The position numbers and the translations under genes were made by a program. This document shows, piece by piece, positions 1-10,145 of a DNA stretch of 10,145 nucleotides. How positions within the stretch are numbered: the first letter of the stretch is position 1; each line of letters begins with the position of its first letter. The notes beneath the pieces were generated by a model that saw only the letters and a list, made by a program, of their open reading frames with translations, was not told the DNA's origin and searched no databases. The stretch is from Bacteriovoracaceae bacterium (GTDB taxonomy: Bacteria > Bdellovibrionota > Bacteriovoracia > Bacteriovoracales > Bacteriovoracaceae): assembly GCA_049599895.1 (NCBI GenBank), contig JBMYPC010000113.1, positions 1 through 10,145 of the forward strand, given 5' to 3'.

Positions 1-831
1 TTCCTCGGCGACTTCATGAGCATGGTTGGCGGCAATTTCTCTTAATGTTTTAAGATCGTAGACCGGTTTTCCAAATGAACGAGAACTCATCACTTCTTTT
101 TTCTTTTGCTGAGTCTCTCCAATTGGAAAGCATGAAACTCCTCTGAGCTCATCTTGAATTTGAAGGCCAACTTTTGTTAACGTTTTTTTGATCAGAGCTT
201 GATTTTCAAAATCTCGAAAATCAAGTGCTGTTTTGATTCCCATAAAAATTAAGCGAGCTTCTCGTCCTTTTGAAACTCCCCAAAGCTTGTTAATAGGCAT
301 TTGTTTGAGGGCTTCTTTTTGATCCTCTTGAGTGAGAAGTGAAACGACTCCATTGAAAGACAGATCTTTTTTAGCGATAAAACAAGCGGCTTTTGTAAGG
401 CCTTTTGTTGGAGCAACACCAATAGAGACGGGGACTTTAGTAAACTGTTCAACCGTTTTTTTTATTTCTAAAGAGAATTGATGAGGGTTTGAAACTCCTG
501 TGAGATCAATAAAGGCTTCGTCAATGGAATAGACTTCGACGTTCGAAGAAAATGTTTTAAGGATATTAATGATTCTTTTTGAAACCTCCGTGTATAAAGA
601 AAAGTTAGAGGAAAAAATGGCGACTTTGTGCTTTTGGCAAAAGCTTTTGACTTTAAAGTAAGGAACACCCATTTGGATCCCAAGAGATTTCGCTTCTCGG
701 TTTCTTGAGATCACACATCCATCGTTATTTGAAAGGACAATAACAGGCTTCTTTTTTAGATCAGGTCTAAAGATTTTCTCACAGCTACAAAAAAATGAAT
801 CGCAATCGACAAGGGCCATGACATTTTTCAT
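1..831 (-). CDS. umuC: Y-family translesion DNA polymerase V catalytic subunit UmuC (3' end outside the window)
   Basis: Hand translation from ATG at 831-829 gives 277 open codons to the window edge: MKNVMALVDCDSFFCSCEKIFRPDLKKKPVIVLSNNDGCVISRNREAKSLGIQMGVP...VEVYSIDEAFIDL...VSIGVAPTKGL...LWGVSKG...SSRSFGKPV. It contains the UmuC hallmarks D-C-x-S-F, SNNDGC, YSIDE and SRSF. The start overlaps the umuD stop (TAATG). Not in the ORF track because there is no stop in the window. Confidence 0.96.
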   Translation of the reverse strand, partial: MKNVMALVDCDSFFCSCEKIFRPDLKKKPVIVLSNNDGCVISRNREAKSLGIQMGVPYFKVKSFCQKHKVAIFSSNFSLYTEVSKRIINILKTFSSNVEVYSIDEAFIDLTGVSNPHQFSLEIKKTVEQFTKVPVSIGVAPTKGLTKAACFIAKKDLSFNGVVSLLTQEDQKEALKQMPINKLWGVSKGREARLIFMGIKTALDFRDFENQALIKKTLTKVGLQIQDELRGVSCFPIGETQQKKKEVMSSRSFGKPVYDLKTLREIAANHAHEVAEE

Positions 832-1229
832 TAAAGCCTTCGAATAATTCCGCTGACTGTTCCAAAAATACTAAAATCACAATCAGAGCTAAGAATGATA
901 GGGGAGAACTTTTGATTATCTGATTGAAGCATTATTTGATGATTTTTTTGGATGAACCGTTTGCAAATTCTTTTTCCAAGATATTCAGCGACGACAATGT
1001 CGTTTGTAAGAGGAGTTCGAGAACAGTCTACTATCAAAAGATCATTTGAAGAAATTGTAGGAGACATGGATTCGCCTTTGGCCTTCATGAAAAAAGTTGA
1101 ACTTGGGTTTTTTACTAAAAGCTGATGAAGATCGAGCTCTTTTTCATCATAGTCTTCAGCTATTCCAAAGAGGCCACAGAGGACCTCGCCAAGGTAGAGT
1201 TCCGATTTTATAAAAGGAGAAGGCTTCAT
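831..1229 (-). CDS. umuD: DNA polymerase V accessory subunit UmuD (S24 autopeptidase)
   Basis: Cys-Gly cleavage site (VLCG, followed by AEDY...LDL), catalytic Ser in GESM and Lys in ICKR, no N-terminal HTH, directly upstream of umuC. The ATG at 1229 (MKPSPF) is preferred over the track's TTG at 1256, which falls inside the predicted promoter. Confidence 0.93.
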   Translation of the reverse strand: MKPSPFIKSELYLGEVLCGLFGIAEDYDEKELDLHQLLVKNPSSTFFMKAKGESMSPTISSNDLLIVDCSRTPLTNDIVVAEYLGKRICKRFIQKNHQIMLQSDNQKFSPIILSSDCDFSIFGTVSGIIRRL

Positions 1230-1237
1230 AGAAATAT

Positions 1238-1266
1238 ATGATACACTTACGCACAACTTACGTAAA
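1238..1266 (-). promoter_or_regulatory. Putative sigma70 promoter of umuDC
   Basis: Minus strand reads TTTACG (1266-1261), 17-nt spacer, TATCAT (1243-1238), 8 nt, then ATG (1229). Confidence 0.55.
1245..1265. repeat. Direct repeat ACTTACG x2 (11-bp period) plus TTACGTAA palindrome; candidate operator
   Basis: ACTTACG at 1245-1251 and 1256-1262; TTACGTAA at 1258-1265; overlaps the predicted -35 and spacer of umuD. Confidence 0.45.
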
Positions 1267-1348
1267 TGCCTGGTGCGAAATAATGTATCTACTTGAAAAC
1301 CTGAAGCCTCAAGACCCTCAATAGGCTAAATTAAATTCCAAGTCTTTC

Positions 1349-1362
1349 GAGCTTTAAAGCTC
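1349..1362. promoter_or_regulatory. Perfect 14-bp palindrome, candidate transcription-factor site
   Basis: GAGCTTTAAAGCTC is its own reverse complement and lies just upstream of a TAGAAT -10-like hexamer (1369-1374) preceding the beta-barrel gene. Confidence 0.4.
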
Positions 1363-1384
1363 TAGGGGTAGAATAAAAGGAGGG

Positions 1385-2242
1385 ATGGGCAAAAGGTTAG
1401 AATTGATTCGCTTAATACTCATTATTAGTTTTTTAAGTTTGTTTCCAGTGAGTCTGCTGGCGCAAAGTTCAACAAGCTCTCAATCAGCAGTGATTGGCAA
1501 CTTGAGATTTAATTATGAAAGTGTTGATTGGGAATACCGAGAGTTTACTGGCTCGGGTGATGAGCTTATGAAAGACTATGGGAAACTCACAGGGTTTTCT
1601 TCAGAGCTTCAGGGGCAAGTTGGTTTTCTTCAATTAACTTCATCATATAGGTATCTTTCAGGTAGTACTCGGTATGAAGGGGGTCTTCAGGACTCCAATG
1701 GAAACTATGCGGGAGATTATGATACTGATTCAAAAAATAAAATTGTAAATTACGAATTAGGAATCCACCGTGTTTACGACATAGGGGCGGGACAAGTTTG
1801 GACCATGGGAATAGGCTATTATATTCGAAAGCTTGATAACCCTGAACTTCCCTCAGATCCCTATGACTATTCTCGATACGCGACCTATAAAACCATTCCC
1901 TTCACCTTAAAGTATGTGAATAAGAGCTTTGATTTTTTTCGCTTTGAGGCCATCGCAAAACTTCATACATTCTTTAAAGGAGAAACTGACACTCGCTCGT
2001 CTGAAGTCAACCCAGAGTCAACAGATGTTGTCTTTCAACAACCCAATGGTAGAGGTTTAGAGCTTAAGTTGAACTCATTTTTTAATACAGGCTATGGGAG
2101 ACTTATGTTTGGTGCTTACGGAACTTTTTGGTCTGTAGAAGATAGTGATTATGAGCCTGTTCCTGGTAGTGATTCACTTATTCGTTATGAACCAGAAAAT
2201 AAAACATCAGTGATAGGATTTAATGTCGGTCTTGCTTACTGA
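1385..2242 (+). CDS. Exported outer-membrane beta-barrel protein, function unknown
   Basis: Signal peptide (basic N-terminus, hydrophobic core, LLA/Q at about residue 26); Tyr/Gly/Phe-rich alternating strands; no Cys; C-terminal strand ending in an aromatic residue (VIGFNVGLAY), typical of BAM substrates. Confidence 0.8.
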   Translation: MGKRLELIRLILIISFLSLFPVSLLAQSSTSSQSAVIGNLRFNYESVDWEYREFTGSGDELMKDYGKLTGFSSELQGQVGFLQLTSSYRYLSGSTRYEGGLQDSNGNYAGDYDTDSKNKIVNYELGIHRVYDIGAGQVWTMGIGYYIRKLDNPELPSDPYDYSRYATYKTIPFTLKYVNKSFDFFRFEAIAKLHTFFKGETDTRSSEVNPESTDVVFQQPNGRGLELKLNSFFNTGYGRLMFGAYGTFWSVEDSDYEPVPGSDSLIRYEPENKTSVIGFNVGLAY

Positions 2243-3138
2243 AAAAAATAATTTTCAATTTCTTTGAAGTTCTCAAAAACATTATTCTTTTTTTGTTCAA
2301 TATACTCGGACTGCAAAAGAGCATACTTTGGTCCAAGAAGTTGAAGCTCATCAGAGAGCTTGTCTCCAATCATAAAGCTTAAATGAGGGTCAATATTCCA
2401 TTTTCTTATGGCCTTAATAAGCATACCCGGTTCAGGTTTTCTTTGTGAACTCATCTTTGCATAATCTTTTACTTTTCCATCGGGGTGATAAGGACAGTAA
2501 AAAGCATCAAGAAATTGAATTTGATAGCGATCTTGAAATTCCTTGAGCATTGCTTGGTGAAAATTTTCAAGTTCTTTCAAAGTAAATTTTCCTTTTGCCA
2601 CACCAGATTGATTACTAAGAATAATAAGCTCAAGGCCATTAGCTGTTGCTTTTTTTAAAAGGGGAACGACCTCTTCTTTGAGATGAAGATCCGAGACCTT
2701 ATGAGGGTAGTGAGTGTCATGAATGAGAATTCCATCTCGGTCGAGGAATAAGGCCCTTTTATTAAGATCATTCAAATTTTCCTCTGGGATCGTTTGAAAG
2801 AGGGCAAAATCTTGAAATCTTTGTTGATCATTAACTAAAAGAAAATGAGAACTCTGAAGCATTTGATCTTTTTTTACACAATAATAAGTGAATCTAAAGT
2901 TCGAAGAAGAGAGTTCCTCAAGCTTCTCGATTTGAGCTTTCTGAAGAAAAAAAGGCTCTTCGAGATTAAAAAAGAGCGTGGGAGCATCTTTTCGTTTTTG
3001 TTGATCAGGGTCACTTCGCTTTGCTGGAAGAGAGATCGAACATATCTTTTTTAGGTGTGAGAGGTATTTTTCAGAAGTCTGCTCAGGTGATCCAATAAAA
3101 GATTCGGAGAAAAAAGGTTGTATTGTCAGTGATTTCAT
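2236..3138 (-). CDS. gmhB: D,D-heptose 1,7-bisphosphate phosphatase-like HAD-IIIA hydrolase with N-terminal extension
   Basis: FLDRDG (D133/D135), SNQSGVAKG, YCPYHP...RKPEPGM and IGDKLSD match GmhB/HisB-N motifs. The 3' end overlaps the convergent beta-barrel gene by 7 nt. Confidence 0.82.
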   Translation of the reverse strand: MKSLTIQPFFSESFIGSPEQTSEKYLSHLKKICSISLPAKRSDPDQQKRKDAPTLFFNLEEPFFLQKAQIEKLEELSSSNFRFTYYCVKKDQMLQSSHFLLVNDQQRFQDFALFQTIPEENLNDLNKRALFLDRDGILIHDTHYPHKVSDLHLKEEVVPLLKKATANGLELIILSNQSGVAKGKFTLKELENFHQAMLKEFQDRYQIQFLDAFYCPYHPDGKVKDYAKMSSQRKPEPGMLIKAIRKWNIDPHLSFMIGDKLSDELQLLGPKYALLQSEYIEQKKNNVFENFKEIENYFFQ

Positions 3139-3179
3139 CTTCTTAGAGTTTAGAATAGCTTACATCAAATGAGAAATGT

Positions 3180-3208
3180 GTGACACGGCATTTCCTGGCT
3201 GCTATAAG
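3180..3208 (+). promoter_or_regulatory. Putative sigma70 promoter for the ABC exporter genes
   Basis: GTGACA (3180-3185), 17-nt spacer ending in TGC (extended -10 TGn), TATAAG (3203-3208); 28 nt upstream of ATG 3237. Confidence 0.45.
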
Positions 3209-3236
3209 GGTTTCTAATTCAAAACAAAATTGGGCA

Positions 3237-4931
3237 ATGAGTAATAAATCGATCCTCAGTGGGAGTCTTTCCTATTTCATTTACAAGGCCTTTACGGGAT
3301 ATTTCTTCTTTTATCTCTTGGCCTTAGTTTGTCTTTTTATGACCCATCTTATTCAAAGTGAGCTACCATTTCTTGCTAAAGATATTGCAGGGCTCGTGGA
3401 AGGGAAGGTTCTTGAAACGAGTACAGGGTTCTACGTTCTTCTTGCTGTCGGAATCATTATTTTTAGAACCGGCTCAAGATTCCTCTTTTTTTACCCAGCA
3501 AGAGTTCTTCAAAGAGATGTACGAGTTGAACTTATCGAGAAACTCGAAAAGGCACCTCCTTTTCGTTATGAAAAGCTTTATCCATCAGGTGAAATCCTAC
3601 AGATCACATCTAATGACCTTGATAATCTCAGAGGGCTCATCGGTTTTGGATTATTGCAAATTGGAAATATTATTATTGCTCTGTCAATTTTGATCCCCCG
3701 ATTAGCTGGGTTTAATCCAAGGCTGCTTATTGCTTTGATTCCTTTGTTCTCAGCATTTGTTTTCTTCACCGTTTTAGTGGCAAGAAATAGAAAGTTTTAT
3801 CAAAAGACCCAGGAGTATCAAGGACAGATTCAGCAATATCTTGTTGAGAGTTATGATGGAAAGACCACTATCCAAAACTATGAGGTCGAAAAGCTCTTTA
3901 TTAACTTATTTAATAAATACTCTTATCGAGAACTTTTGAATTTCTACAAAGCAGGAAAGAATATTGCCTTTTCGATTCCCTTAGTTCCATTTGGTGTCGG
4001 AGTTTCCCTTTTGTGGGGCGCCCATATTATCTTTAGCGAGTCTTTGGGAGCAGAGGCTTTAATTTTATTTTCAGGCTTTATCTTTCTTTTTTTAGAGCCT
4101 CTGATGTTTCTCTCATGGATTGGTGTTGTCTTTACAAGGGCCATTGTTTCTTGGAAACGAATTAAAAAGTTAGTTTTGGACCTCGATGATGAAAGTGAAA
4201 AAGAAAAAGAATTAAAGACCCTTGAAAATCATGATTTGAGAAATGCCTATGAAGTTATGCTTTGGGGGAAATCTCTAAGAGTCGCAGGTGATTCAAAAAT
4301 TCTTGGTATTGTGGGTCCAACGGGAGTCGGAAAGAGTGAGGTAATGAAGCAAATTGCCTATCTTAATAAGTTTGAGGGCGTGAGTTCATCGTATGTTGCT
4401 CAAGAGCCTTATTTATTTAACGACACCTTAGAGAGAAATCTTCTTCTAGGCGAGTCATTAAAGTCGACGAAGGATCGTGAAGGTGAGTTTTATCAAAGAA
4501 AACTTGATCTTGCTTTAAAACTTCTTAAAGTTTTTGATCTTGAGGTTTTAACTGGTGATCCTCAAACTTTACTTTCTCTAGAGGTGGGAGAGAATGGAAA
4601 ACTTCTCTCTGGTGGGCAGGCCAAAAGAGTTTGTCTTATTCGAAGCCTTTTAAGTGAATCCGAAGTCATTCTTTGGGACGATCCTTTTTCATCGGTGGAC
4701 CTTGTGATGGAACGAAAGATTATGGAGGAGATCAAAGAAATTGGTCTTCTTAAAGAAAGGAGAGTCATATTAACGACTCACCGGTTATCAACGCTTAAGT
4801 TCTGCGATGATTATATTTACTTAAGTCAAAAAATTGAAGAAATTGAAAAAGATAAAACAAAAATTAGTTTAACAAACGAGAACTCAAGATTATATGAGCA
4901 TTTCAAAGCACAGATTGTGGATAATATTTAA
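3237..4931 (+). CDS. Heterodimeric ABC exporter subunit A (TMD-NBD, MdlA-like, non-catalytic Walker B)
   Basis: Multiple TM helices, then Walker A GPTGVGKS, Q-loop YVAQEP, signature LSGGQ, Walker B VILWDD (Asp in place of the catalytic Glu), H-switch THR. ATG 3237 is preferred to the track's GTG 3180. Confidence 0.9.
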   Translation: MSNKSILSGSLSYFIYKAFTGYFFFYLLALVCLFMTHLIQSELPFLAKDIAGLVEGKVLETSTGFYVLLAVGIIIFRTGSRFLFFYPARVLQRDVRVELIEKLEKAPPFRYEKLYPSGEILQITSNDLDNLRGLIGFGLLQIGNIIIALSILIPRLAGFNPRLLIALIPLFSAFVFFTVLVARNRKFYQKTQEYQGQIQQYLVESYDGKTTIQNYEVEKLFINLFNKYSYRELLNFYKAGKNIAFSIPLVPFGVGVSLLWGAHIIFSESLGAEALILFSGFIFLFLEPLMFLSWIGVVFTRAIVSWKRIKKLVLDLDDESEKEKELKTLENHDLRNAYEVMLWGKSLRVAGDSKILGIVGPTGVGKSEVMKQIAYLNKFEGVSSSYVAQEPYLFNDTLERNLLLGESLKSTKDREGEFYQRKLDLALKLLKVFDLEVLTGDPQTLLSLEVGENGKLLSGGQAKRVCLIRSLLSESEVILWDDPFSSVDLVMERKIMEEIKEIGLLKERRVILTTHRLSTLKFCDDYIYLSQKIEEIEKDKTKISLTNENSRLYEHFKAQIVDNI

Positions 4932-6651
4932 ATTCAAAGAAGCTTCTTGGCTTTTACCTGCGATAGGTGTTTGTCTGATTTTATCAGCAACTCTTGGTGG
5001 TATTGTTCCATTTCAGATAAAGAAACTTGGAGATGTTTATGGAGAAGAAGCTAAATTCTATGAACAAATAAAGGTTCTCTTTTTCGTTTTCTTTGCTGTG
5101 TATGCCAATCGAGCTCTTTATCAACTTTGTATTAATAAGTTCATCAAACTTCTTATGCATAATGCTCGAAATCTCTGTTACGGCTATTGGGTCCGTTTTA
5201 AGAATAATGAATCCAAACAAGATCGGTTTCCTATGGGGGAAGTGATTGCTCGGATCATGAGTGACACAGAGGCGATCAGGGAGCTAATTACCTCTGGAAC
5301 CTTTGGTGTTCTTATTGATGTGAGTTTTGTGGTTTCTTCACTTATCAGTTTCATTAGTATTAATACGAAAACCGGAAGTATCCTTGCCATTGCTGAGTTT
5401 GCTGCAGCGGTAGGGTTAATTTTTGGTAGTAAGTACATGCGTTCAATATTCTTAAAGGTTCGAGAATCTCGGGGCTATGTCTATAGATCAATTTCTAATG
5501 CTTCAGGGGGCTTTCGTGAAATGTATTACAACCCCAATGAAAATTATGCCAGTGTTTCAACAAAGAGACGCTTTGATGATTTCTTAAAGAAACAGTTGGT
5601 CGCAAATTTTTGGGATGCGAGTTATTATTCATTTGCAGAATCTCTTTATCCACTCTTTCTTCTTTTAGTTATTTTTCTGATTCCTTATAGCGCTATTACG
5701 GAAACAGCTGTCATTTTTGCAATCCTTGATCTTATTCAAAGGTCCATTAATCCAGTAAAAGACATATCGGGAAAGGTGGCGAACTTACAAAGAGCGGCTA
5801 CAGGATTTATTCGAATTAGTGAATTCCTTGAAAAGAGTGGTGCCAAAGAAAATGGTCATCAGTTTAAAGTAGATGTGAGCGAAGTTGAGAAGTTTGAAAT
5901 TACTGTTAATAAGTTTGAATATGAAAACTCGAAATCAAGAGAGTCTTTTGCATTAAAAGAAATTAACTTTACCGTAAAAAAGGGTGAAGTTCTAGGGATT
6001 GCAGGGTTTTCGGGAAGTGGAAAATCAACTCTACTCAAAATCTTAGTTGGACGTCTCCCTCTCGAAGATGGCCTTCTTTCTTTCCAAGGTCAAAATGGAA
6101 CGGAAGTTTTCAATACACAGAAAACTGAAAACTCATTAGATAACGCAAGTCTTTTAAAGAAATATGTTGGGCTGGTTTCTCAAGACTCCCATGTTTTTGG
6201 GGAGAGCCTTCTTTTTAATTTAACCTTTTCCAATGAAGCCACGAAAGACTTTGAAGATTTTTGGGAGTTTGCTTGCTCAAAGATTCCCTACCTTCAAAAG
6301 TGGAAGGGAAAGTTAGAAGAAAGAATTGAGCGAAGTGAATTATCAGCAGGTCAAAGACAATTAATCAGTGGGCTTCGCTGCTGTTATCTTAAAAAGCCGG
6401 TGATTCTTCTTGATGAAATCTCGGCTTCTCTTGACTCAGAACTTGAAGTCGCTTTGAGAGAACTTATTAAACTCATTCAAACTCATTCCATTACCTTAAT
6501 AGTCGCCCATCGGATTGAGACAATTCTTGAGTCGGATAGGATCTTTCTTTTAGAGCAGGGGAGGATTGTTGCAGATGGCCACCATCAAGATCTTGTCAGC
6601 AACAGTTCAAGGTATCGTCAATTTTTAAGTAGGTTAAGTCTTGATCAATAA
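4894..6651 (+). CDS. Heterodimeric ABC exporter subunit B (TMD-NBD, MdlB-like)
   Basis: TM helices, Walker A GFSGSGKS, Q-loop VSQD, degenerate signature LSAGQ, consensus Walker B ILLDE, H-switch AHR. Overlaps the upstream gene; the start could be ATG 4894 or TTG 4915. Confidence 0.9.
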   Translation: MSISKHRLWIIFKFKEASWLLPAIGVCLILSATLGGIVPFQIKKLGDVYGEEAKFYEQIKVLFFVFFAVYANRALYQLCINKFIKLLMHNARNLCYGYWVRFKNNESKQDRFPMGEVIARIMSDTEAIRELITSGTFGVLIDVSFVVSSLISFISINTKTGSILAIAEFAAAVGLIFGSKYMRSIFLKVRESRGYVYRSISNASGGFREMYYNPNENYASVSTKRRFDDFLKKQLVANFWDASYYSFAESLYPLFLLLVIFLIPYSAITETAVIFAILDLIQRSINPVKDISGKVANLQRAATGFIRISEFLEKSGAKENGHQFKVDVSEVEKFEITVNKFEYENSKSRESFALKEINFTVKKGEVLGIAGFSGSGKSTLLKILVGRLPLEDGLLSFQGQNGTEVFNTQKTENSLDNASLLKKYVGLVSQDSHVFGESLLFNLTFSNEATKDFEDFWEFACSKIPYLQKWKGKLEERIERSELSAGQRQLISGLRCCYLKKPVILLDEISASLDSELEVALRELIKLIQTHSITLIVAHRIETILESDRIFLLEQGRIVADGHHQDLVSNSSRYRQFLSRLSLDQ

Positions 6652-6675
6652 ACAAGCATGACAGGAACCCGAAAT

Positions 6676-6713
6676 GAAGCTAACCTAGAAGGAGTATTTT
6701 TAGGAGGCTTTTT
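6676..6713 (+). promoter_or_regulatory. RNA hairpin covering the dsbA Shine-Dalgarno (possible translational control element or weak terminator)
   Basis: GAAGCT-AA-CCTAGAA [loop GGAGTAT] TTTTAGG-A-GGCTTT; the 3' arm contains AGGAGG (6702-6707), 8 nt before ATG 6716. Confidence 0.5.
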
Positions 6714-6715
6714 AA

Positions 6716-7774
6716 ATGACAGGTAAGAATTTGACGAAATTTTTAGTAGTTTCACTATTGGGGACTGTTTTACTAGGACTTTGGTCTTGTACCGAAGAAG
6801 CGGTATCTGAGCCACAATTTATTTTCAAACCTGCTCCAAACAAAACGACTGCTGCAAAATTTGGCGACGTTGAAATTAATTACGACGAACTTCATAAGGG
6901 AGTTGAGTCGGAGCTTTATGAAGCCCGCATGAAAGTCTATGAAATTGAAATGAACCGTCTTCAAGGACTTTTGATTGAAAAAATTATCGAAAAAGATCCA
7001 AAGAAAAAGGGCCTTAGTAACGACGAGTATCTCGATAAGTACATTGCTAAAGATATGAAGGTTTCCGAGCAAGACATTCAGAAATTTGTCAAAGAAAGAA
7101 ACATTCCTAAAAACCAAATTGAAAAGTATAGGCCAAGAATTATTAAATTTCTTGAGATGGAGAATAAGAAAAAGGCGGTTGATCTTTGGCTTGCCAAGCA
7201 AACTAAGAAAACTCCTGTTGAAGTTTATCTCAAGAAACCATCAAGACCTGTGTTCAATGTAAGGTTGGGAAAGGCCCCGTTTACCGGAGATGCAACAGCA
7301 AAAGTGACTCTTGTGGAGTTTTCAGATTTTCAATGCCCTTATTGTGCTAAGGGGGCCAAGATCATTGATGATTTAAAGAAAAAGTATGGAAAGAAACTGA
7401 AAATCGTTTTTAAACATTTTCCTCTTCACTTTCATAAAGATGCAAAGCTTGCAGCTGAAGCGAGCCTTTGTGCCCATGAGCAAAAACCAGAAGCTTTTTG
7501 GAAAATGCATGATGAGATGTTTGCTGATCAAGCGGGGCTTAAAATTAATGGATTAAAAGCAAAGGCCAAAAAAATTGGCCTTAAAATGCCACAGTTTAAT
7601 AAGTGTTTAGAATCAGGAACATACAGGGCCCAAGTCGAAGAAGATATGAAAGATGGAGAAGCCGCTGGAGTGAGAAGCACACCTACATTTTATGTTAACG
7701 GGAAAATGATCAATGGGGCACAACCTGTTGAGGTCTTTTCTGAAATTATAGATGCCGAATTTGCGAAGAAATAA
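6716..7774 (+). CDS. DsbA/BdbD-family thiol-disulfide oxidoreductase, probable lipoprotein, with N-terminal helical domain
   Basis: FSDFQCPYC active site, KHFPL and GVRSTPTF cis-Pro loop; signal peptide ending LGLWS-C25 (lipobox-like); strong AGGAGG SD. Confidence 0.9.
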   Translation: MTGKNLTKFLVVSLLGTVLLGLWSCTEEAVSEPQFIFKPAPNKTTAAKFGDVEINYDELHKGVESELYEARMKVYEIEMNRLQGLLIEKIIEKDPKKKGLSNDEYLDKYIAKDMKVSEQDIQKFVKERNIPKNQIEKYRPRIIKFLEMENKKKAVDLWLAKQTKKTPVEVYLKKPSRPVFNVRLGKAPFTGDATAKVTLVEFSDFQCPYCAKGAKIIDDLKKKYGKKLKIVFKHFPLHFHKDAKLAAEASLCAHEQKPEAFWKMHDEMFADQAGLKINGLKAKAKKIGLKMPQFNKCLESGTYRAQVEEDMKDGEAAGVRSTPTFYVNGKMINGAQPVEVFSEIIDAEFAKK

Positions 7775-7825
7775 CCAAGCGACCAGATCGGTAATGGGGG
7801 CATATTCGAGCAGTTTTTGCTTGGT
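7774..7825 (+). other. Possible 3'-UTR stem-loop after dsbA
   Basis: ACCAAGCGA (7774-7782) can pair with TTGCTTGGT (7817-7825), one G-U pair, enclosing 34 nt. Not a classical intrinsic terminator. Confidence 0.3.
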
Positions 7826-7847
7826 ATTATCCAATTTCAATCAGGTT

Positions 7848-7853
7848 TATAAT
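7848..7853 (+). promoter_or_regulatory. Consensus -10 hexamer upstream of the coiled-coil gene
   Basis: TATAAT 41 nt before ATG 7895; no good -35 at 16-18 nt spacing. Confidence 0.3.
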
Positions 7854-7894
7854 TAAACATAATGGCAACTTTTCCAGGAAGGGAATTTCGCTAA

Positions 7895-9871
7895 ATGTCA
7901 GGAACTGATCAGGTAAATCTAAAAGTAAATCGTCTAAGAAAGCGCTATCAAGATGCGATTGAAGACGTGCGTAAAGAGAATGAGCAAAACCTGTCGGAGC
8001 TCAAAAAAAGCTACGAGGCCAAGAATCAAACCGCTGTCGATAATTACAAAAAAGATCGCGAAAGGATTGAACAAAAAAACCTTGAAAGTATTGAAAGGTA
8101 TAAAGAAAAGCTCTCCGAAACCATGAGCAAGAAAAGCCAGGATTATGAAGATAGCGTACGTCAGATGAAAAAAGACTACGAGAATCTTAATAAAAAAGAT
8201 AGAGAAGGCGTTCAAGAAAAACTCAATCGCATTTCAAACGAATACAATGAAAAAGAACGAACTCTTGATCAAAGAACCTTTGACCAAGTTTTTGAAGTTA
8301 AAAGACAAGCTGACAGAAGACAGCTAAGAGATCGTATTGGTTTTTCTCAAGACATGGAACTCTATGAGGAACATACAAAAGACCGTATGCGTGAGCTTGG
8401 TAACTCAAATGCCAAAGAGATCAAAGATCTGAACAATCGACACAAAGACTTTCTTCTCGCAAGTAATACAAGACATATTCAAGAAAAAGAAGCTCTTAAG
8501 AAAAATCTGATGGATTATGCAGGAAAGCTTAAAAACCAAAACACAGATGAAAAGAGTGCGATGCGAGAAACATTTGAAAATAATATTAAGGCCATCAATG
8601 AAAATAAAAACTTTCAACAGGTCAAGATGGAGAAGAATTATTCAGGAATTATTCAAAATAATGCAGCTAAAGCTGAGCAACAAAGACGAACAACTGAAAA
8701 AGATCTTTTAAATCAACTTGATGACGTTAAAAAGCAGGCCTTCGATAGAAGTCGAAGAAATAATACTGTCGTTAATGAACTCAAAACCACCAATCGTACA
8801 AATCAAAGAGTTAATGAACAGATGATGGGTGAGGTAAAACGCAAGATCAAGCTTGTAGGCCAACGAGGGAATGATAAAATTAATGTCGCTGAAGATAATT
8901 TTCAAAAACAACTCAATGAGTTAGGAAGACAAAATCAAAACTCCCGTATTCGAGAGCGTGAAGCTTTACTTTCTCAAGCGAATGAAGAAAAAAACCAAAT
9001 TATCACTGATAAAATCGCCACTGTTAATCGAGAAAAGCAGGACAACAAAATTGAAGTTTCAAAGTATCAGCAGCAATTAAGAGATCAAGAAAGAAGTAAT
9101 CAGATTCGTTTATTTGAAGCAAATCTTGCCAATAAAAAGATGCTCCAACAGAGATCAATCGAAAGAAGCCAGCAAATGAGTGAAGTTTCTGAAAGAAACC
9201 GCAATGCTCTTAAGGCCATGCAAGAAAATCATGAAAATGAGAAAATCGAATACATGGAAGAAACTCGAGATCGAGTGGCCAAAACAGACCTCAATTTGAG
9301 AAAGACTTTTGGTGATAAAATTTCAAAACTTGAGCAGAGACAAGAGCAGCAAGTTCAGATGCTTCAAGACACTCTTGATCGAACTATTAAAAAGTACGAA
9401 GCATTGTTGGTTTCAACTAAGAACCAAGGCATGCAAGAACTTGAAGACTTTAAGAAGCTCGCCAAAGATCAAATGGATATTCAAAAGAAGAATTTCCAAC
9501 ATGTACTTGAGCAAAAAGAGTTAGACCGTATTAATGAGAAGACTTCAATGAAGCAAGAGTTTGCAAAGAAGCTTACTGATACGAAAGAAGCTGAAGAGCT
9601 TAGAGTGATGGATATTACCAATCGTTATGAGCGGCAGATTAATACTGAGAGAAAGAACTATTATAAAGCCCTTAAGCAGAAGCTCACTGAAGCCCATCGT
9701 CAGTTAGAAAATTTAAGAAATCGTTCAGAAGTCGAGAAAAATAATATTAGAGTTCAGTTAAATACGAGAATTTCAGATCTTCAGCGAGAGAACCTGAAGA
9801 TCCGACAGCTTAACGAGGAGCGAAAACAGTACCTCGATCCAGTTGATCCGGATAAAATAGACGTCTCTTAA
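7895..9871 (+). CDS. Cytoplasmic hendecad (11-residue) repeat helical/coiled-coil protein, function unknown
   Basis: 658 aa, rich in K/E/Q/N/R/D; no Cys or Trp; Pro only in the C-terminal DPVDPD; no signal peptide or TM segment; clear 11-residue periodicity. Confidence 0.88.
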   Translation: MSGTDQVNLKVNRLRKRYQDAIEDVRKENEQNLSELKKSYEAKNQTAVDNYKKDRERIEQKNLESIERYKEKLSETMSKKSQDYEDSVRQMKKDYENLNKKDREGVQEKLNRISNEYNEKERTLDQRTFDQVFEVKRQADRRQLRDRIGFSQDMELYEEHTKDRMRELGNSNAKEIKDLNNRHKDFLLASNTRHIQEKEALKKNLMDYAGKLKNQNTDEKSAMRETFENNIKAINENKNFQQVKMEKNYSGIIQNNAAKAEQQRRTTEKDLLNQLDDVKKQAFDRSRRNNTVVNELKTTNRTNQRVNEQMMGEVKRKIKLVGQRGNDKINVAEDNFQKQLNELGRQNQNSRIREREALLSQANEEKNQIITDKIATVNREKQDNKIEVSKYQQQLRDQERSNQIRLFEANLANKKMLQQRSIERSQQMSEVSERNRNALKAMQENHENEKIEYMEETRDRVAKTDLNLRKTFGDKISKLEQRQEQQVQMLQDTLDRTIKKYEALLVSTKNQGMQELEDFKKLAKDQMDIQKKNFQHVLEQKELDRINEKTSMKQEFAKKLTDTKEAEELRVMDITNRYERQINTERKNYYKALKQKLTEAHRQLENLRNRSEVEKNNIRVQLNTRISDLQRENLKIRQLNEERKQYLDPVDPDKIDVS

Positions 9872-9959
9872 GCTCATTTTCTTCAATCAATCCTTTTTCA
9901 ATTCACCTTTATTTTGGTAAGTTCCAGATGTTACGAAAATTACCCTTAAAGGAGTTCCT

Positions 9960-10145
9960 TTGCGACGAGCTAAAATTGTCGGTACCCTAGGTCCGGCTTC
10001 AAATGAAGTTGCTGTTATTAAGGATTTAATCAAAGCTGGCCTAAACGTCGCGAGAATTAATTTCAGTCATGGTACTCATGAGGCCCATGCCCAAACAATC
10101 AAGAATGTCAGAACCGCTGCAAAAGAATGTGGTGTACAGGTTGGA
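9960..10145 (+). CDS. pyk: Pyruvate kinase (5' part, runs out of the window)
   Basis: AAGGAG SD (9949-9954), TTG start at 9960, translation MRRAKIVGTLGPASNEVAVIKDLIKAGLNVARINFSHGTHEAHAQTIKNVR, matching the PK N-terminal KIVxTLGP and RxNFSHG motifs. Not in the ORF track. Confidence 0.96.
   Translation, partial: MRRAKIVGTLGPASNEVAVIKDLIKAGLNVARINFSHGTHEAHAQTIKNVRTAAKECGVQVG

Follow-up and report, generated by a model that had tools for sequence, protein, structure and literature searches.

A hinged, fixed-length hendecad rod protein with an aromatic core, conserved in the predatory Bacteriovoracaceae

Long natural coiled coils built from 11-residue repeats, or hendecads, have been described as largely unexplored (PMC9858780, excerpt). 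In such proteins the 11/3 hydrophobic stripe runs near-parallel to the helix axis and packed helices give nearly unsupercoiled, straight bundles. One core residue per hendecad faces the bundle axis; dimers need a small residue (alanine) at this position, a higher oligomer forming otherwise, and this rule explains the alanine-rich cores of FilP and Scy from Streptomyces (PMC9858780, excerpt). Scy is more than 1000 residues long and consists almost entirely of hendecads, and both proteins carry an N-terminal DivIVA-like motif in a heptad coiled coil along with their dimer-suited cores (PMC9858780, excerpt); the rods of FilP are 37 nm long and build up striated filaments (PMC6599971, excerpt). 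Heptad-based predictors and the coiled-coil models of Pfam miss long hendecad coiled coils. Here we describe a protein of this kind, encoded on a 10,145-nucleotide stretch of DNA (the window: positions 1 to 10,145, forward strand, of contig JBMYPC010000113.1, assembly GCA_049599895.1) from a member of the Bacteriovoracaceae, a family of predatory bacteria in the phylum Bdellovibrionota. An initial annotation, made from the letters alone, had singled out its 658-aa open reading frame (ORF) as a rod of in-phase hendecads and a candidate cytoskeletal or membrane-scaffold protein. The product is a divergent member of an unannotated family of hendecad, probably coiled-coil, rods in which the axial core is aromatic, one hinge is present and the length is both fixed and quantised; hendecad rods as such were already known. 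The reading that we favour, at a probability of about one half, is a cytoplasmic, fixed-length coiled-coil strut or scaffold. Coordinates of all features in the window are collected in Table 1.

The ORF is open over its full length, as had been claimed. When the positions of hydrophobic residues (A, F, I, L, M, V, W, Y) were subjected to Fourier analysis over periods of 2-40 residues, one dominant peak emerged, at 3.66 residues with a power of 33.1, whereas 300 composition-preserving shuffles had a mean maximal power of 6.4 and never exceeded 12.2. The initial annotation had set a period of 3.67 residues against the heptad value of 3.5, and the power at 3.5 residues is 0.1, so that a dominant heptad period can be set aside. 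The peak is unchanged on the Kyte-Doolittle scale (27.8, against a shuffle maximum of 12.9) and both halves of the protein are periodic at 11/3, with powers of 23.7 (residues 15-289) and 15.0 (residues 290-658). This is the strongest 11/3 signal among the 2545 ORFs of at least 150 residues in the 3.27-Mb genome, the next best being 17.2. Written in rows of 11 from R15, the sequence has hydrophobic residues at positions 4, 8 and 11, as originally parsed, and the preference for Tyr, Phe, Asn or His at position 4 holds in 15 of the first 25 rows. The 11/3 phase is constant from residue 1 to about residue 297, moves by approximately one residue between 290 and 310, and from there to the C-terminus stays much the same. 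The long in-phase stretch thus reaches somewhat further than the end near residue 289 given for it, and the hendecad pattern does resume after the shift, but there are two long in-phase segments and not several register shifts. Proline is found at residues 649 and 652 only, within the last 10 residues as had been observed, cysteine and tryptophan are absent, and the composition (Gly 12/658, Ala 29/658, Tyr plus Phe 30/658) includes 40% charged residues. No 33-nt periodicity is visible in the DNA of the rod gene and no repeat identity was seen at either DNA or protein level, which agrees with the view that the repeats are old. The ratio of nonsynonymous to synonymous divergence (dN/dS) is 0.042 for the sole close orthologue pair with unsaturated synonymous sites, and 0.04-0.07 in four more pairs with dS >2; together with conservation, the former value rules out a spurious ORF.

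The family to which the protein belongs is unannotated. No Pfam or NCBIfam family matches it at E <= 0.01, save for a sub-threshold match to ZMYND8_CC, and hence no known family, such as an SMC fragment, accounts for its full length. A word-indexed homologue search returned only the query itself among 7996 scored candidates; an exhaustive search of 1.84 billion representatives recovered 21 proteins at E <= 1e-3, query included. The best relative (656 aa) shares 32% identity, and most of the others (629-653 aa) are about 20% identical and aligned end to end, four being shorter at 140-388 aa. All relatives examined peak at 3.65-3.685 residues, with powers of 17-55. Those that are named in public annotation are hypothetical proteins of Halobacteriovorax sp. 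or Bacteriovoracaceae, and the portions available of the literature searched, including PMC3526173, PMC6985089 and PMC13147790, contain no description of the rod family. Within the Bacteriovoracaceae a single-protein query matched 39 of 151 genomes, and a family profile (A1) built from 28 full-length members, with 648 positions, matched 126. These matches come from 57 of 69 genera and include 94 of the 110 genomes with a completeness of 90% or more; nearly all span profile positions 1 to ~640. The search for homologues and paralogues proposed at the outset has therefore recovered a family that is unannotated and present in most of these genomes.

In a phylum-wide sample of 301 genomes the profile matched 62 of 67 Bacteriovoracaceae genomes; only five genomes from other families were matched, weakly and partially. 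Three of the outside matches, 549, 593 and 686 aa long, likewise have a hendecad period (peak 3.655-3.665 residues, power 21-33); they align non-collinearly with the profile, at full-sequence E values of 1e-7 to 3e-17. Hendecad rods thus exist elsewhere in the Bdellovibrionota, and it is the fixed form that is specific to the Bacteriovoracaceae. Long hendecad rods of differing lengths may, indeed, be widespread in the phylum. Two kinds of paralogue accompany the family, both of them pure hendecad proteins. A second full-length form (641-646 aa) occupies an unrelated locus in at least 10 genomes (e.g., G119:C1:241522-243435) and adjoins a D-Tyr-tRNA deacylase gene at two loci, while a short form of ~185 aa in several genomes matches profile positions 6-185 (e.g., G013:C3:153016-153543) and is periodic with a power of 16-27 over ~185 residues only.

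The family preserves its length far more closely than its sequence. Fifty-eight full-length members were compared after trimming to the conserved start: the 28 of A1, a further 20 orthologues of greater distance and 10 copies of the second paralogue. Their length is 647.5 +/- 4.8 residues (range 629-658) at a median pairwise identity of 17%, a constancy to within 1%. Relatives of the organism's own 1587-aa heptad protein, taken as a control from the same 151 genomes, span ~1040 to 1780 aa and match partially. Internal indels in the rod family are few, and those that occur are small and concentrated at profile positions 277-313, which is the hinge; the rods themselves have next to none, and the hinge is the only indel-tolerant part of the protein. 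Indels of five or more residues are limited to a deletion of 10 or 11 residues and an insertion of 11, 47 columns apart and asymmetric about the hinge, which are common to the 658-aa protein and its closest relative and may represent one hendecad of local alignment slippage and not two real events. A few split or longer frames also appeared in the profile search. Of the two looked at, a 603-aa variant in one genus (G109:C2) is shorter by a net 33 residues (3 x 11), and an 825-aa variant in one genome (G038:C50) carries a duplication of 176 profile positions (16 x 11) plus four linker residues. Rare larger indels thus come in multiples of 11. This constancy gives indirect support to the suggestion in the initial annotation that the protein might be a molecular ruler.

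Per-column hydrophobicity in the family alignment resolves the protein into two rods. Columns 1-297 hold 27 hendecads in unbroken register, a conserved Gly-Gly pair follows at columns 298-299, and a second register begins near column 309 and extends to near column 638; the hinge region of the 658-aa protein, with its Gly312/322/325, aligns with the Gly-Gly of the main group. In the N rod, position 6, which lies at the centre of the stripe on an 11/3 wheel, is 44% aromatic and 29% Asn/Gln/His with just 5% alanine, and it is flanked by positions 2 (53% aliphatic) and 10 (50% aliphatic), alanine making up 5-6% at the flanking core positions. The core of the C rod has four positions (a-d-e-h): aliphatic plus aromatic residues account for 47% and 67% at the central positions 4 and 8, and for 31% and 45% at the edge positions 1 and 11. 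Conservation is column-specific and extends to polar core residues, and both termini are the best-conserved parts of the protein. The polar face is rich in Glu, Lys, Arg, Asp, Asn and Gln, with K/R and D/E spread near-evenly and no class-A segregation. The 28 members examined for net charge lie between -9 and +33, most of them close to zero, and on this ground a nucleic-acid-binding polycation was rejected. No transmembrane- or signal-like segment is present, the highest 19-residue Kyte-Doolittle mean among the 58 members being 0.34. Helix is predicted from residue 4 to 646, and the claim that the protein lacks a globular head, signal peptide or transmembrane helix stands.

AlphaFold2 was run with the family alignment on two members. 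For the 658-aa protein it predicts helices at 4-317 and 329-646 (mean predicted local distance difference test score, pLDDT, 72.9), with pLDDT at 70-85 up to residue 290 and below 50 at 299-313 and 315-328, and a DSSP break at 318-328. For a main-group member from a near-complete genome the helices are at 6-291 and 304-645 (mean pLDDT 77.3), and the model breaks at the Gly-Gly, residues 292-303. A helix predicted at moderate confidence does not fit a disordered monomer, the outcome that the initial annotation had named as fatal to its proposal. An alpha-helix rises by 0.15 nm per residue, and at that value the arms measure ~44 and ~48 nm and the whole molecule ~45 nm if folded back or ~95 nm if extended. 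The single continuous fibre of ~95 nm first envisaged is thereby replaced by two rods joined at a conserved, indel-tolerant hinge. Structural searches added little: Foldseek against the PDB gave no match, the ESM Atlas no feature match above 0.83 and no structural match above TM 0.27, and a wide VIA-align search single long helices only (best Z = 9.0, a tropomyosin chain). VIA-align rows covering both arms had root-mean-square deviations of 80-158 Å and are thus uninformative on fold-back, and a complex prediction for the N arm (1-317) against the C arm (329-658) scored 0.00, which makes no call either way.

Functionally, the closest described proteins are Scy and FilP, which are likewise cytoplasmic bacterial rods, hendecad-rich and devoid of an enzymatic domain. 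The rod family shares their domination by hendecads (27 plus ~29, with next to no power at 3.5 residues), but no sequence relationship to either was detected. It has no DivIVA-like motif, its hendecads starting at about residue 2 and no DivIVA Pfam family matching, and in place of an alanine core its axis-facing position is occupied by Tyr/Phe in 44% and by Ala in 5% of cases. It differs further in its central hinge and its fixed length, and in belonging to the Bdellovibrionota and not to the Actinobacteria.

Under the reading that we favour, two uninterrupted helices of ~300 residues, each with an 11/3 hydrophobic stripe and joined by a short glycine hinge, would self-associate through the stripe into a stiff coiled-coil rod with hardly any supercoiling and with a fixed length, whose role would be a structural one, as strut, spacer or scaffold. 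The occurrence of Tyr/Phe or Asn/Gln/His, and rarely of alanine, at the axis-facing position points to an antiparallel, staggered or more than two-stranded bundle; one such assembly would be a four-helix rod ~45 nm long made by the pairing of fold-back hairpins. Column-specific conservation, intolerance of the rods to indels other than in units of 11, and a fixed total length together argue for a register-specific assembly in which length matters, as opposed to a generic coat. On this reading the stripe would serve helix-helix packing and not lipid binding, and length itself would be the selected property. The ~185-aa paralogues could be co-assembly partners of the N rod. A more ambitious version, which we consider unlikely as a whole, would make the protein a Bacteriovoracaceae cytoskeletal strut of straight hendecad helices with an aromatic axial core, either antiparallel or four-stranded at ~45 nm or extended at ~95 nm, whose length, quantised in steps of 11 residues (1.65 nm), determines some dimension of the cell, so that it forms an intracellular ruler, the second full-length and 185-residue paralogues co-assembling with it.

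The family offers a natural model of ~56 uninterrupted hendecads with a single hinge and an axis-facing core that is aromatic, unlike the alanine cores of Scy and FilP, and it could supply design rules for straight, unsupercoiled helical rods. If length is indeed the selected property, it would also provide a testable bacterial intracellular ruler or strut, in a host group that includes cultivable, genetically tractable members (Halobacteriovorax, Bacteriovorax).

Several observations weigh against a coiled-coil strut. Core positions are only ~50% hydrophobic and the grand average of hydropathy (GRAVY) lies between -1.3 and -1.7 across family members, so that a coiled coil would be marginally stable. 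The mutual placement of the arms is not predicted (AlphaFold predicted template modelling score, pTM, 0.20-0.22). Covariation between N-rod and C-rod core columns, tried in antiparallel and parallel registers, gave a best z of ~3 among ~280 offsets, no more than noise for an alignment of 58 sequences. Moreover, the arms are of near-equal length in the 658-aa protein (314 and 318 residues) but not in the main-group member (286 and 342), which weakens hairpin closure as a reason for the fixed length. The gene neighbourhood, comprising an ABC exporter pair, a DsbA-like protein and pyruvate kinase, has no cytoskeletal, envelope or motility link. Finally, when a 58-row profile was compared with the PDB the best match was to ApoA-I (E = 2.2e-6, 29 bits), gapless over profile positions 113-293.

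This last match belongs to the main rival explanation, that of an apolipoprotein- or perilipin-like giant amphipathic helix whose 11/3 stripe would lie on a lipid surface, be it the inner membrane, a storage-lipid body or a vesicle, and would coat, shape or stabilise it. Belt proteins set the size of lipid discs, and the fixed length could similarly set the size of the coated object; the family would then be a bacterial counterpart of the apolipoprotein and perilipin helices. ApoA-IV was matched by the same profile at E = 0.0019. Apolipoproteins share with the rods an 11-residue amphipathic-helix periodicity, and their chains are the only solved ones that the profile matches below E = 1e-3 (ApoA-I, E = 2e-6); the apolipoprotein matches are weaker with the 28-row profile. 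However, the 58-row profile also matches true coiled coils, namely ATP synthase subunit b (E = 0.006) and V-ATPase subunit G (E = 0.048); since unrelated hendecad proteins are matched as well, the ApoA-I match looks like one of periodicity plus composition. As secreted lipid carriers of eukaryotes, apolipoproteins are built of 22-mers punctuated by proline and have their charges in the class-A pattern, whereas the rod family has no signal peptide, only 0-3 prolines per member and charges of either sign spread almost evenly round the polar face. It is also less hydrophobic, 2.7x the length of ApoA-I, and the 658-aa protein matches no Pfam apolipoprotein family at E <= 0.01.

The perilipin comparison is similarly divided. 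Lipid-bound 3-11 helices are typified by their 11-mer periodicity, and in Plin4, an indel-free array of 11/33-mers of ~1000 aa with a weak hydrophobic face, length offsets weak hydrophobicity (PMC5889406, excerpt); the rod stripe is likewise narrow and weakly hydrophobic. Plin4 is, however, rich in Thr, Gly and Val, has almost no aromatics and near-identical repeats, and is unfolded in solution (PMC5889406, excerpt), whereas the rod repeats have diverged, aromatics mark the stripe (44% at the central position) and the polar face is rich in Glu, Lys, Arg, Asn and Gln. Strict length, indel intolerance and column-specific conservation would, in addition, be unexpected for a generic surface coat. 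We judge lipid binding the strongest of the alternatives and still unlikely.

Two further explanations are less likely again. The extreme hydrophilicity implied by the GRAVY values, the 40% of charged residues and the absence of Cys and Trp would suit a protectant of the late embryogenesis abundant (LEA) or hydrophilin kind, in which a hydrophilic 11-mer helix shields proteins or membranes in the osmotic or starvation stress of the free-living attack phase. The 11-residue repeat recalls group 3 LEA proteins, and the strong consensus -10 box and Shine-Dalgarno (SD) motif described below are compatible with high expression. Group 3 LEA 11-mers are, however, rich in Ala, Thr, Gly and Lys. The rod repeats are not Ala/Thr/Gly-rich (Gly makes up ~2%), no LEA_4 or other Pfam family matches, and the repeats are unhomogenised, with conserved residues specific to each column. 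Protective repeat proteins usually vary in repeat number, which the fixed length contradicts, and AlphaFold gives helix without any partner. This is in our view quite improbable. The second possibility starts from the charge pairs: at i,i+4 opposite charges are paired more often than expected (family mean z +2.8) and like charges less often (z ~ -1.9), as might be expected if one or two monomeric, stable single alpha-helices served as a long spacer or tether between partners at the conserved ends, with no self-association. The well-conserved termini, the fixed length and the existence in several genomes of a ~185-aa paralogue resembling the N-terminal part are all in keeping with such a tether. 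Single alpha-helix domains, though, have no hydrophobic seam and a dense i,i+4 Glu-Lys/Arg network. The seam of the rods is strong, and a monomer would leave the continuous Tyr/Phe/Leu/Ile stripe, recurring every 3.67 residues, exposed; salt bridges are only moderately enriched, at 0.09 opposite-charge pairs per residue in the 658-aa protein. A monomeric tether accordingly has a similarly slim chance.

A coiled-coil strut or scaffold finds partial parallels in several other systems. F-type subunit b and V-type subunit G form hendecad, near-straight or right-handed coiled coils that act as rigid stators. In addition to the weak profile matches, subunit b chains are among the structural matches to single arms, but the rotary-ATPase stalks are about a quarter of the length, are transmembrane-anchored or ATPase-bound and are encoded in ATPase operons, none of which applies to the rod family. 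Chemoreceptor cytoplasmic hairpins and the arms of SMC and Rad50 have two hinged arms of similar length, and their length is conserved. The rods resemble them in these respects and lack head domains, an ATPase neighbour and a transmembrane part; the ATPase head halves of SMC, Rad50 and MukB have no counterpart, there being no SMC_N or AAA match and helix being predicted from end to end.

Crescentin and the Ccrp proteins of Bdellovibrio and Helicobacter are cytoplasmic coiled-coil scaffolds from the same phylum or lifestyle (work on Bdellovibrio Ccrp is listed among the references of PMC6985089). They are heptad-based, whereas the rod protein has almost no power at the heptad period and no match to Filament, Rod_CreS or Tropomyosin. 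The 1587-aa heptad protein mentioned above (G000:C18:26191-30954, + strand) has a power of 51.6 at 3.5 residues, matches Pfam Filament, Rod_CreS, Tropomyosin and EzrA, and is a candidate Ccrp-type cytoskeletal protein. Two more ORFs of the same genome have a raised 11/3 signal, one of 231 aa (G000:C9:19684-20379, + strand; power 17.2) and one of 827 aa (G000:C59:2010-4493, - strand; power 15.3); neither matches a Pfam family, nor the rod profile at E <= 1e-5.

Table 1. Features of the window, with coordinates, strand and the evidence for each
Feature	Position	Strand	Basis
Whole ORF, hendecad rod protein, 658 aa plus TAA stop	7895..9871	+	Periodicity, family membership, purifying selection
N rod, residues 2-298, 27 hendecads in one register, three core positions per repeat	7898..8788	+	Phase, register map, composition, predicted helix
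Hinge, residues 299-328, register shift, low model confidence, Gly312/322/325	8789..8878	+	pLDDT, phase, family indels
C rod, residues 329-646, ~29 hendecads, four-position a-d-e-h core	8879..9832	+	Predicted helix 329-646, composition, phase
Short non-helical variable tail, residues 647-658, both prolines, plus stop codon	9833..9871	+	Prediction; unaligned in family
Candidate -10 promoter hexamer TATAAT, 47 nt upstream of ATG	7848..7853	+	Consensus match only
CCAGGAAGG, putative ribosome-binding (Shine-Dalgarno-like) motif	7874..7882	+	Read in window; orthologue counts
UmuD-UmuC pair	1..1256	-	
UmuC-like polymerase V subunit, runs off left end	1..831	-	
Peptidase_S24 UmuD-like gene	831..1256	-	
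285-aa ORF	1385..2242	+	No Pfam/NCBIfam family
HAD-IIIA (GmhB/histidinol-phosphatase-like) phosphatase, convergent	2236..3138	-	
ABC exporter and DsbA-like genes	3180..7774	+	
ABC exporter half-transporter, first	3180..4931	+	
ABC exporter half-transporter, second	4894..6651	+	

The rod gene keeps constant company. Among the first 19 relatives, examined with 1.5-kb flanks and with one locus ending at a contig edge, pyruvate kinase lies downstream in 19/19, the DsbA-like gene upstream in 18/19 and the ABC exporter upstream in 17/19. All three neighbours are retained by 16 of the 20 distant orthologues, two more keeping the DsbA-like gene alone and two none of them, and the neighbours are 40-60% identical where the rod is ~20% identical. 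The second and short paralogues sit amid unrelated housekeeping genes. An operon with the ABC exporter and DsbA-like genes was considered and rejected in view of a terminator-like hairpin 3' of the DsbA-like gene (in 16 of 33 orthologues), a -10 box belonging to the rod gene itself and the location of the paralogues elsewhere. The -10 box and the upstream hairpin suggest that the rod gene is its own transcription unit, which leaves its context silent on function.

In the same 33 orthologues a TA[N]A[A/C]T hexamer occurs 25-90 nt upstream of the start in 28 (mean 8.9 and maximum 18 in 200 shuffles), CCAGGAAGG with at most one mismatch in 13 (shuffle mean 0.1, maximum 1) and an SD-like word 5-24 nt before the start in 22 (shuffle mean 2.2, maximum 7). 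From these counts it seems probable that the -10 box and SD motif function as the rod gene's own expression signals. In a generic promoter and terminator scan of the window no signal near the rod gene rose above shuffles, and among the orthologues a sigma-28-like pattern was found upstream in 4/33, a sigma-54-like pattern in 0/33 and a strict -35/-10 sigma-70 pattern in 0/33; of the promoter elements the -10 box alone is conserved.

The two half-transporter genes overlap by 38 nt and are followed by the gene for the DsbA/thioredoxin-like protein (352 aa), in which the thioredoxin domain takes up residues 187-347 only, behind a long N-terminal extension. The phosphatase has an N-terminal extension of ~125 residues without a family match, and the UmuD-like and UmuC-like genes overlap by one base.

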